Of a DNA stretch of 64,000 bases, positions 53,640 through 64,000 are shown piece by piece. Position numbers and translations under genes: made by a program. Below the pieces are notes generated by a model. The model searched no databases, was not told where the DNA came from, and saw nothing but the letters and a program-made list of their open reading frames with translations. Origin of the DNA: a virus (lineage: Duplodnaviria; Heunggongvirae; Uroviricota; Caudoviricetes). Where the stretch lies: IMG/VR virus record IMGVR_UViG_3300029605_000001; one strand, 5' to 3'. Within the stretch, counting starts at the first letter, position 1. Every line of letters starts with the position of its first letter.

Positions 53640-53932
53640 AATACCTCTTTCATAAATAACGTAGTAATAACATCTATATTCATTCTAATCTGGGAATAGA
53701 TATCCCATTTTTCCTCTTTCCTTTGATTAGGCCAATCAGATAATATTATTTCGTATTCACATCTAGCCCACCATCTTGCCGCACTAAATCCAAGTATGAA
53801 GTTAGCAAATGAATCAAAAGTAGTAGGCTTATTCTCTCTTTCATTATAAGCCTCAATCAAGGGAGGCATTATATTATATGGCTCAAATTTATTTGCATTT
53901 ACGTTATATATAATCACATTAAATGGTGTCAT
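53636..53932 (-). CDS. Hypothetical phage protein
   Basis: Track ORF with W.RCEYEIILSDWP motif and ATGA overlaps. Confidence 0.75.
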   Translation of the reverse strand: MTPFNVIIYNVNANKFEPYNIMPPLIEAYNERENKPTTFDSFANFILGFSAARWWARCEYEIILSDWPNQRKEEKWDIYSQIRMNIDVITTLFMKEVL

Positions 53933-54423
53933 ATTACATATTTTTTAACAATTTCAGAGATCATTTTACCATCAGCTTGAGGGAACTGAACTTTTATAGC
54001 TTTATCTATAAACTATTGAGTAGTAAGTAGTTTAGATTCCATATAACATTTTGGACAACCTTTCCCCTGTAATAAATTGTTTGGAGTAGTCTCAAAATCA
54101 CCGTGTGCAGGGCAAGTGATTATGACCTTAGTATGCTGGTTTACATACTTAACCTTACTGTAATTACTATTGACCTGTTTTGCTTTCTCTATAAAAGTTT
54201 CCTTAGAATCACTGAGTTTATCAGATTTAGATTTTGCAGAGCATTTTGGACATTTTCTTCCTGCTAAAAAATTATTTGGAGATATTAGAAATTCCCCATG
54301 TTCAGGGCAAATTATACAAACCTTATTTTTAGCTGTTGTATAATCTACTTTATCATAACAGTATTCAGGATGTATGGATATTGCCTGTTGTATAAATTCC
54401 TAAGTTGTTTTTCTTTTACTCAT
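53929..54423 (-). CDS. Chimeric ORF: homing-endonuclease-type Zn-ribbon repeats fused to YqeY-like C-terminus (2 in-frame TAG)
   Basis: Two CPxHGxF...CPKC repeats, then KVQFPQADGKMISEIVKKYVI. ATGA overlaps at both ends. TAG at 54400-02 and 54013-15. Confidence 0.7.
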
Positions 54424-56927: not shown

Positions 56928-57596
56928 TTATTCTTTATAAGCTTCGTCTGGAGTAATATGACTTTTTAAAGTATATTGTATACTATTTTTCTCCTGAAGC
57001 TTTATTATTTCTTTGACTTTCTCCCAAGACATTGGAGTATAATTATTATTGTCAACCCCTACATCATATTGATATGGAAATCTATACCGAAGTCTTTCTA
57101 TGTCTTTTCCAGTAGCCCCAGGGTGCTCATGTACATGTCCGTGCAATTGTATTACACAATCTTCAGGATTTCTATAAGTTCCAGCATAACAAAGAAATGG
57201 ATAATGATTAAGTATTACTTTGTACTTATCATCAATCTTTAACAACATTTGATAATGCACACTTTCAAAAAGTTCTATTATCTTATCTCCAGGCCATCTA
57301 GTAGTATCATGATTGCCAAGTATTAAATGATGTTTGCCATTTAATTGAGATAGTATTTCTTTCCATCTCCAATTAGGAGCAAATGCAAAATCTCCTAAAT
57401 CAAATACTATATCATTTTTACCTACAACAGAATTCCAATTTTCTATTAAGGCTTTATCCATCTCTTCTACAGTTTCCCACGGTCTATTACAAAACTTAAT
57501 GATGTTTTTGTGGCCAAAGTGCAGTTACAGGTCCGAGGTAAAATAAATATTCACCTCGGACGATTTTAATTTTAATGGTTTAACATTTTCAAACAT
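56928..57596 (-). CDS. Calcineurin-like metallophosphoesterase with in-frame CTG-TAA-CTG interruption
   Basis: IYFTSDL*LHFGH, LGDF, LGNHD, HYP, LHGHVH and DVGVD all in one frame from ATG 57596. TAA at 57525-57527. Confidence 0.85.
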
Positions 57597-57610
57597 ACTT
57601 ACTATAATTA

Positions 57611-57820
57611 TTATTTAGTACTTTTATAATCGAGAGTCATGGTTAAATAGGTTATAGCATCTAGTTCTCCTCTACTTAGAGAAATAAGTTTATCACCTAT
57701 ACTAATATCCCATCCTTCTCCATTAGCCCATTCTGTAGCTTCAATATATTTATCATCATTTATCAGACAATCATATAACTTTAAATTATCTGATACTGAT
57801 TTTCTATTTGACATTTCCAT
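57611..57820 (-). CDS. Hypothetical protein
   Basis: Track ORF with TEW.NGEGWDI motif. Confidence 0.75.
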   Translation of the reverse strand: MEMSNRKSVSDNLKLYDCLINDDKYIEATEWANGEGWDISIGDKLISLSRGELDAITYLTMTLDYKSTK

Positions 57821-63317: not shown

Positions 63318-64000
63318 CGCTTGTATTAACTCCTGGCTCTTTATCCAAGACTCTATATATTACTATATAGGCTAGACTATATCATTACCATATTAAATAA
63401 AAAATATTTAACTTAGGTATTGGGCGCTCGTGTCAGTATTATATTCTATCTAAGATAGTTTCAACTGTTAGTCGTTGAACCTTCTAGAGTTGTTAAGCTC
63501 TAGCTTGGTTGCTGATTGTCCTTTACGTTCCAGCAGTTCACCCAATTTTCATCTACTGATTTCTCTAGTAGTGCTACAAAAATATCATATTTTCTAGTTA
63601 AATACACTGTAGAATTCTCATATAAAAACTTAAATAAATTAGTAATATTCTTCTTATTATAGATATGTATATTAGCAGCATTACATTCTTTGCGTTTTAT
63701 AATAGAGCATTGAACTTCATTTTTATTCAGTTCATTCTTTATTTTTTCTAAAAAGATTAAACTCCCAGATGTAATAGATGCTTCATATCTAGTTTTTTCA
63801 TGAGGGCTTCTAATGCAACCATCCCCATCAAAATACCCCCTAATAAAATCAGAAGTGTATTTTACATTAGGATCTAAAGTCAGAGATTTATTTGGAACTA
63901 TGTTTAATTCATTAATAAAATATTCACATAATTCCTTGCAACAAATACTGGCTTCTAAAATACCGTTTTGTTTTCTAGTATATAATTTAACTATATCGGA
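63318..64000 (-). mobile_element. Group I intron in polA (5' part outside window)
   Basis: On the - strand: P AACTGCTGGAA (63538-28), Q AATCAGCAAC (63517-08), R GTTCAACGACTAA (63480-68), S AATGATATAGTC (63386-75), P9 CTATATA-GTAA-TATATAG (63370-53), terminal G at 63318. Confidence 0.9.
63500..64000 (-). CDS. Intron-encoded LAGLIDADG homing endonuclease, 3' part
   Basis: IVPNKSLTL...DFIRGYFDGDGCI. Open from the window edge to TAG 63500, or to TGA 63461 if TAG is read through. Confidence 0.85.
   Translation of the reverse strand, partial: SDIVKLYTRKQNGILEASICCKELCEYFINELNIVPNKSLTLDPNVKYTSDFIRGYFDGDGCIRSPHEKTRYEASITSGSLIFLEKIKNELNKNEVQCSIIKRKECNAANIHIYNKKNITNLFKFLYENSTVYLTRKYDIFVALLEKSVDENWVNCWNVKDNQQPS

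Follow-up and report, generated by a model that had tools for sequence, protein, structure and literature searches.

A stop codon between synonymous codons in the catalytic motif of a viral metallophosphoesterase gene and its probable bypass by hopping ribosomes

The metallophosphoesterase gene in the 64,000-nucleotide stretch of viral DNA analysed here (the window) contains an extra 6 nt with an in-frame stop codon, which interrupt metal-binding motif I of the enzyme as SD-L-stop-L-HFGH (CTG TAA CTG). Ribosomes probably hop over this insert from the first leucine codon to the second, which would restore the exact Asp-Leu-His motif. The element is most likely a natural, conserved in-frame stop-hop, a miniature counterpart of the bypass in phage T4 gene 60. 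The original prediction, made from the window alone, had placed CUG-UAA-CUG inside a catalytic motif and read it as a stop-hop. The window sequence confirms the arrangement, and comparative sequence data support the interpretation through matched codons that are conserved among relatives, a covarying hairpin and a low rate of replacement changes. The features of the site are listed in Table 1.

Table 1 Features of the window, with positions counted from its first letter.
Feature	Position	Strand	Basis or remark
Metallophosphoesterase gene with in-motif stop	57596-56928	minus	window translation
ORF1	57528-57596	minus	23 codons to Ser-Asp-Leu; first strand and Asp of motif I; start position as in homologs
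Hairpin 5' arm	57550-57561	minus	fold; 7-nt loop follows
Hairpin 3' arm	57531-57542	minus	fold; the Ser and Asp codons at its end (six bases) form the conserved stem base
Predicted take-off codon CTG (Leu)	57528-57530	minus	sequence; role inferred, covaries with landing codon
Stop codon TAA	57525-57527	minus	sequence
Predicted landing codon CTG (Leu)	57522-57524	minus	sequence; role inferred from covariation
His codon after landing codon	57521-57519	minus	sequence
ORF2	56928-57521	minus	remainder of calcineurin-like metallophosphoesterase from HFGH; GD, GNHD, H and GHxH intact
G/C-rich recoded segment	57501-57563	minus	likely cassette-derived; third-position composition and boundary of the relatives' match
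69-aa upstream gene	57611-57820	minus	also precedes uninterrupted relatives L009 and L041
Virion block with TAG read as Gln	299-52805	plus	gene lengths under this reading
164-aa zinc-ribbon ORF	53929-54423	minus	DUF723, DUF4379, CapR
Group I intron, 3' part	63353-64000	minus	Rfam RF00028, 75 bits

Read across the site, the gene encodes 22 residues up to FTSD, then Leu, stop, Leu and HFGH, and is otherwise a complete enzyme. With X at the stop position the translation matches phrog_547 with an E value of 4.5e-53. A profile of 61 uninterrupted homologs matches PDB entry 1xm7 (aq_1665) with an E value of 3.7e-30, and the same entry is the top Foldseek match for the model of a homolog; ORF2 alone had no match in Pfam, and a single-sequence search of the PDB found nothing. 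Among the motifs shared with phrog_547 and aq_1665-like proteins, DxH is intact only if the 6 nt are skipped. All 14 columns that are invariant in the 61 uninterrupted homologs are present in the window gene, in line with the earlier statement that the remaining motifs are intact. In several relatives (L161, L163, L133, L159, L120, L157, L166, L169 and L130) genes for RNA ligase, polynucleotide kinase, tRNA-His guanylyltransferase or CCA-adding enzyme lie near the phosphoesterase gene, a neighbourhood that hints at a possible role of the enzyme in RNA end repair.

The insert is present in contigs from two sequencing runs. The contig of run X1, which is possibly the window's own source, covers positions 57462-57640 with 0 differences and 0 gaps. 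The contig of run X3, from another study, crosses the site without a 6-nt gap and with no difference listed at 57510-57601, and differs from the window at 62 other letters over 901 nt. The site itself is covered by these two contigs and not by those of runs X7, X8, X9 and X10, the X7 and X10 pieces being short. An assembly artefact is an unlikely source of the 6 nt, given that the gap-free contigs come from two different studies; the original prediction had looked to raw reads for this point, and the presence of the insert stands, on the evidence of contigs and not of reads.

The site also differs from its surroundings in composition and folding. The third codon position is G or C in 14 of the 21 codons from 12 to 32, against 36 of 190 elsewhere in the gene, and CTG accounts for none of the 15 later leucine codons; the GC-rich codons noted originally are thus unusual for this gene. 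A survey of the window for TAA or TGA codons inside long open frames with flanking codons sharing two letters gave 16 sites, and the upstream fold is most stable at the metallophosphoesterase site (-19.8 kcal/mol, followed by -15.6).

The window genome looks crAss-like from its gene layout. TAG is read as Gln in the virion block, where genes of up to 3697 aa are open only under this reading, and the minus-strand genes around the phosphoesterase gene contain few or no TAG codons. No tRNA genes were found within the window. The element is independent of the TAG reassignment, as originally proposed, since its own stop is TAA and all three stop codons are used among relatives. Elsewhere, the window end cuts through a group I intron; its 3' part, together with a LAGLIDADG-like ORF, lies immediately before the 3' part of a family A DNA polymerase gene. 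The 164-aa ORF with repeated zinc-ribbon units resembles the binding part of mobile endonucleases; no nuclease domain was seen in it.

A peptide-seeded search, in which the best 80 of 157 relatives were all uninterrupted, would on its own have suggested that the insert is a private mutation. A scan that admitted any 9 nt between the Asp and His codons found phosphoesterases at 10 of 33 viral loci, each of the ten with Leu-stop-Leu. When metagenome contigs were scanned with the flanking codons left free, phosphoesterases made up 27 of 34 loci, and the same amino acid flanked a true stop in all 27 (22 Leu, 4 Pro, 1 Gln); a third scan gave 13 phosphoesterases among 15 loci, including one Thr-stop-Thr. 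By comparison, the flanking amino acids agree in 4 of 41 chance matches. No phosphoesterase from the any-9-nt and free-flank scans has a sense codon in the middle position.

The 74 records obtained were reduced to 29 non-redundant phage versions at 90% identity. The flanking pairs are synonymous in all 29 (26 Leu, 1 Pro, 1 Gln and 1 Thr, two of the scan patterns having favoured Leu). Fourteen pairs are identical and the other 15 differ at the wobble position only, as tRNA re-pairing predicts; pairs such as CTA/CTC would require re-pairing beyond standard wobble. The stop is TAA in 14 versions, TGA in 8 and TAG in 7, a stop having been demanded by some of the scan patterns and not by the any-9-nt, ACC or ACT variable-gap scans. 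Rather than being unique to one genome, the insert is therefore shared by 29 non-redundant versions, and the matched codon/stop/matched codon arrangement that the original prediction expected among relatives is conserved, the two codons changing together across four amino acids and three stops. One narrow pattern applied to bacterial and archaeal genomes gave 49 loci, none of them a phosphoesterase, and no cultured phage with the insert was found among 7 regions examined.

Inserts of other lengths were recovered by a variable-gap scan anchored on ACC, in which 23 of 85 loci passed the filter. Five of these were excluded, two because they are not phosphoesterases (L376 and L397) and three because a chance upstream site had matched an uninterrupted gene (L404, L422 and L438). 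The resulting 18 interrupted phosphoesterases comprise five known 6-nt cases and 13 others, with net inserts of 5 nt (six loci), 8 nt (five loci), 11 nt and 12 nt. A stop directly follows the first codon in all 18, and the codon before His is synonymous with the first in 12 of the 13 other-length loci, the exception being L393 (Ser/Ala). The 61 loci of an ACT-anchored variable-gap scan yielded one case already known and one chance pass.

The original prediction had described a perfect 9-bp inverted repeat, extending to about 12 bp and ending before the first CUG. The hairpin indeed has 9 perfect pairs, or 12 with one G-U, extends to the third base of the Asp codon and folds with a z score of -2.87 (121 nt). 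A six-pair stem base just 5' of the first matched codon is found in 27 of the 29 versions and in none of 95 uninterrupted homologs; in its strict form it is missing in L120 and L133. This base, whose 3' side consists of the Ser and Asp codons, is constant, whereas the upper stems vary in length and sequence. The Ser wobble position shows each of the four Watson-Crick pairs, so that the covariation anticipated for relatives is observed. The median folding z score is -4.8 for the versions with insert and +0.25 for the uninterrupted controls. The take-off codon lies 3' of the entire stem or, in a few versions, forms part of its 3' arm. The hairpin matches no Rfam family.

Two uninterrupted close relatives, L002 and L003, have a weakened form of the hairpin (z of -4.4 in L002); the L002 stem may be a relic of a lost insert, a possible reversion. 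The 5' arm in L130, L140, L163 and L178 covers the overlap between the stop codon of the nuclease and the start codon of the phosphoesterase, where the stem may also gate initiation. A Shine-Dalgarno-like GAGGUG in the 5' arm of the window hairpin was set aside because its sequence complements the Thr-Ser codons and it is some 20 nt away from the take-off codon.

In the proposed hop the ribosome would pause when UAA enters the A site, its peptidyl-tRNA-Leu paired with the first CUG. The P-site pairing would be released and the stem would zip up behind the ribosome, its last six pairs, which involve the Ser and Asp codons, pulling the mRNA forward. The tRNA would then re-pair on the second CUG, six bases on, and decoding would resume at His; some ribosomes would terminate and release a 23-residue peptide. 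A long nascent-peptide signal appears dispensable in the L130 and L163 groups, because their ORF1 has only 9 codons.

The insert probably originated as the immunity mark of a homing cassette. A homing nuclease would cut the DNA of the invariant motif, and the insert would block cutting of the nuclease's own site. This origin is argued from relatives, since the window shows only the new start with hairpin and insert and contains neither an endonuclease upstream of the phosphoesterase nor a stranded old start. Thirteen of the 29 groups have a nuclease-like gene, or what is left of one, immediately before the phosphoesterase gene, with its end 26-163 nt short of the take-off codon. Six of these are LAGLIDADG genes (with Pfam scores near or below the cut-off in several groups), two are HNH genes, and five are NUMOD3-bearing genes with an HNH-like motif, which are named endonucleases from the Pfam NUMOD3 match and motif likeness, with no catalytic-domain match. 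A nuclease gene or remnant also lies directly upstream in 7 of the 13 loci with inserts of other lengths. Among 85 control upstream ORFs, a PHROG scan assigned two HNH labels and one other nuclease label, and it is a fairer comparison than tblastn with nuclease queries, which were drawn from the hop loci and hence biased toward them.

Eight of the 29 groups, and none of the 95 controls, carry the uninterrupted start of the old gene, stranded ahead of the nuclease or nuclease remnant; these stranded starts end at or shortly after the motif Asp. In the relatives' layout a LAGLIDADG or HNH-type gene occupies the beginning of the phosphoesterase gene, and a new start, hairpin and insert come after it. 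The filled allele L160 and the empty allele L244 are 97% identical up to the motif, where about 1 kb is inserted in L160; beyond it come the new start with its hairpin and insert, roughly 120 nt that are 67-77% identical, and a further 360 nt at 87-100%. Further filled/empty pairs are L127/L285 and L420/L039. In L122 and L127 the frame stops just after GNH, about 250 nt past the landing codon, and similarity to L285 returns some 200 nt past that stop, which marks a second insertion in the same gene.

In the window itself, the loose ends of the X8 and X9 contigs at 57500 encode uninterrupted SDLHFGH, and these contigs match the window only from 57500 downstream. Because the match of these uninterrupted relatives begins where codons 12-32 end, the G/C-rich codons are likely the cassette's recoded copy, and the window lineage likely lost the nuclease afterwards. 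No ribozyme core or group I or II intron was matched in Rfam at the site or in five nuclease-bearing loci, while the same search does detect the group I intron elsewhere in the window. The scar of a lost intron, named earlier as an alternative, is therefore unsupported, since no Rfam intron is present in five loci that still hold the nuclease. In the Streptomyces phages Karp and Francob (L505:1140-1835 and L510) an HNH gene is present and the first 45 nt of the phosphoesterase gene are replaced, with neither insert nor hairpin; the hop would thus be one solution among others. Stigma (L511) carries the empty allele of this site, which provides a cultured filled/empty pair suited to the study of immunity by recoding alone.

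The gene appears to have been maintained after the insertion. Replacement changes are far fewer than silent ones on both sides of the stop, the comparison by which the original prediction proposed to detect selection. Downstream of the insert pN is far below pS in all 12 hop-bearing pairs, where the low dN of distant pairs may predate the insertion. Better evidence for function of the product comes from a well-supported six-member clade with no nuclease found upstream, which keeps insert and stem at pS of 0.68-0.97 and pN of 0.05-0.13. Silent divergence over the 20 codons before the stop is 0.00-0.38 in six pairs, compared with 0.58-0.97 downstream, and is similar to the downstream value in the four most distant pairs. 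A quick tree, built after removal of 3 hop and 15 control rows for their short length, shows the insert scattered, with 15 changes of state of which at least 6 are forced by strong branches; the tree cannot tell gain from loss, and the scatter is as homing with losses would give.

The same data bear on the possibility that the cassette is real but the gene effectively dead here, hopping being too rare and an accessory gene decaying. The enzyme is presumably accessory in phages, and three hop-bearing versions have short downstream frames (76 codons in L122 and in L154, 33 in L159). Nevertheless, a dead gene is improbable in view of the intact invariant residues, the second strain that keeps frame, insert and hairpin across 62 other differences, and the nuclease-less clade that keeps insert and hairpin at near-saturated silent divergence and low dN.

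It is more doubtful still that translation is normal and the 6 nt are lost from the RNA, whether through protein-assisted micro-splicing or because the hairpin drives RNA polymerase to realign. Such removal would be consistent with a hairpin adjoining a short direct repeat and with the RNA ligase, kinase and tRNA-repair genes that are frequent beside the relatives' genes. However, the repeat tracks the amino acid (CT, CC, CA or AC) and is loose at the wobble base only, the stop always follows the first codon, insert lengths run from 5 to 12 nt, and the five nuclease-bearing loci lack an Rfam intron. A match of 2-3 nt is also short for realignment of an RNA-DNA hybrid. The ribosome is favoured over RNA polymerase or a splicing enzyme because of the wobble-only looseness and the constant stop.

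Just as unlikely is a split protein. Ribosomes would in that case terminate at TAA and reinitiate at the second codon or beyond it, and the short first peptide, or the stranded start of filled alleles, would complete the active site in trans, as in phage Aeh1 with its split nrdA. CUG is able to act as a weak initiation codon, and the stranded old starts encode D-x-H in several relatives. Rescue of split genes by endonuclease elements has also been described (10.1101/2022.08.31.505936). A restart would, however, leave the codon matching unexplained; the landing codons CCG, CAG, ACT and CTA are not starts, and the window has no stranded start to supply the motif.

Readthrough of the stop, with an enzyme tolerating two extra residues (D-L-x-L-H), is the least credible alternative, for although 6-nt and 12-nt inserts preserve the frame and the window genome reads TAG as Gln in virion genes, the window gene uses TAA and relatives use each of the three stops, no sense codon occupied the middle position in the any-9-nt and free-flank scans, 5-, 8- and 11-nt inserts break the frame in a way that readthrough cannot repair, D-x-H spacing is constant in 61 of 61 aligned homologs (selected on that motif), and model confidence for residues 21-30 falls from 97 in an uninterrupted homolog to 78 in the read-through version, a weak sign from fold models that provide confidence values only and no Asp-His distances.

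Ribosomal hopping over the insert, as the preferred reading, has several implications. Natural bypassing is known from very few systems, and the phosphoesterase family offers about 40 natural variants of an element of about 40 bases, whose take-off codon, stop, gap length and stem change independently of one another. These variants make it testable whether a stem forming behind the ribosome suffices to push it forward, a question discussed in 10.1101/2024.12.09.627546. The element would also represent a further route, besides introns, inteins and split proteins, by which homing nucleases enter invariant catalytic motifs. Gene callers will report hop genes as truncated, with the first motif missing. 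A tentative extension is that hairpin, matched codons and stop form a self-sufficient bypass module reused by unrelated homing nucleases, which might be kept after nuclease loss because it is useful, either as standing immunity to the nucleases of co-infecting phages or as a switch tying phosphoesterase output to release-factor activity.

The phosphoesterase element resembles programmed bypassing systems in its synonymous take-off and landing codons (29/29 for 6-nt inserts, 12/13 for other lengths), in the stop as a slow A-site codon after take-off (29/29 and 13/13) and in a conserved mRNA structure (stem base 27/29 vs 0/95) with a putative stimulatory role. A literature search that covered largely openly accessible papers and much of the 2016 review by Atkins et al. 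(PMC5009743) gave no report of the element. In that review, synthetic +5 and +6 stop-hops (Weiss et al. 1987) are described and in-frame stop hopping is said to have no known natural occurrence. The synthetic stop-hops share the anatomy of the phosphoesterase element; they are laboratory constructs, whereas the phosphoesterase element is natural and conserved, with a covarying hairpin. In E. coli, a 10-nt bypass in the terminase gene of Streptomyces phage Hau3 was demonstrated by mass spectrometry after UUA had been changed to UAA (Antonov et al. 2023, PMC10732093). Hau3 likewise has a short gap, a slow A-site codon and a proposed 5' stem-loop, but its natural trigger is a rare sense codon with a proposed regulatory role; the passages considered link the bypass to no homing nuclease, and the main text does not mention phosphoesterase. 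The byps of Magnusiomyces mitochondria, as described in those two papers, are also short inserts, present in many copies, that ribosomes skip between matched codons. They differ in being mitochondrial, in their length of 27-55 nt, in an unused sense codon in the A site and in a spread like that of GC clusters.

The closest comparison is with phage T4, where the bypass cassette of gene 60 lies within a MobA homing-endonuclease element and is called unique in the parts of the account by Manning and Atkins (10.1101/2022.08.31.505936) considered here. As far as these describe it, a free-standing nuclease has in both cases entered a conserved gene close to where metal-binding residues are encoded, and a coding gap arrives together with the cassette's own version of the target sequence. 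Both elements have matched codons, a stop after the take-off codon and a 5' stem-loop; in both the gap outlasts the nuclease, and unrelated nucleases carry the same cassette. In contrast to the 50-nt gap in the T4 topoisomerase gene, that of the phosphoesterase is 6 nt (5-12 in relatives), and its N-terminus is wholly regenerated, so that one protein would result. Unlike in gene 60, there is no take-off stem-loop around the stop, the stem does not hold the take-off codon on its 5' side, and no internal Shine-Dalgarno sequence or long nascent-peptide signal is apparent. The phosphoesterase nucleases include LAGLIDADG as well as HNH-type enzymes, and the hop, unlike that of T4, is predicted from sequence. 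The phosphoesterase element thus appears to work like the T4 MobA/gene 60 element without being a member of it.
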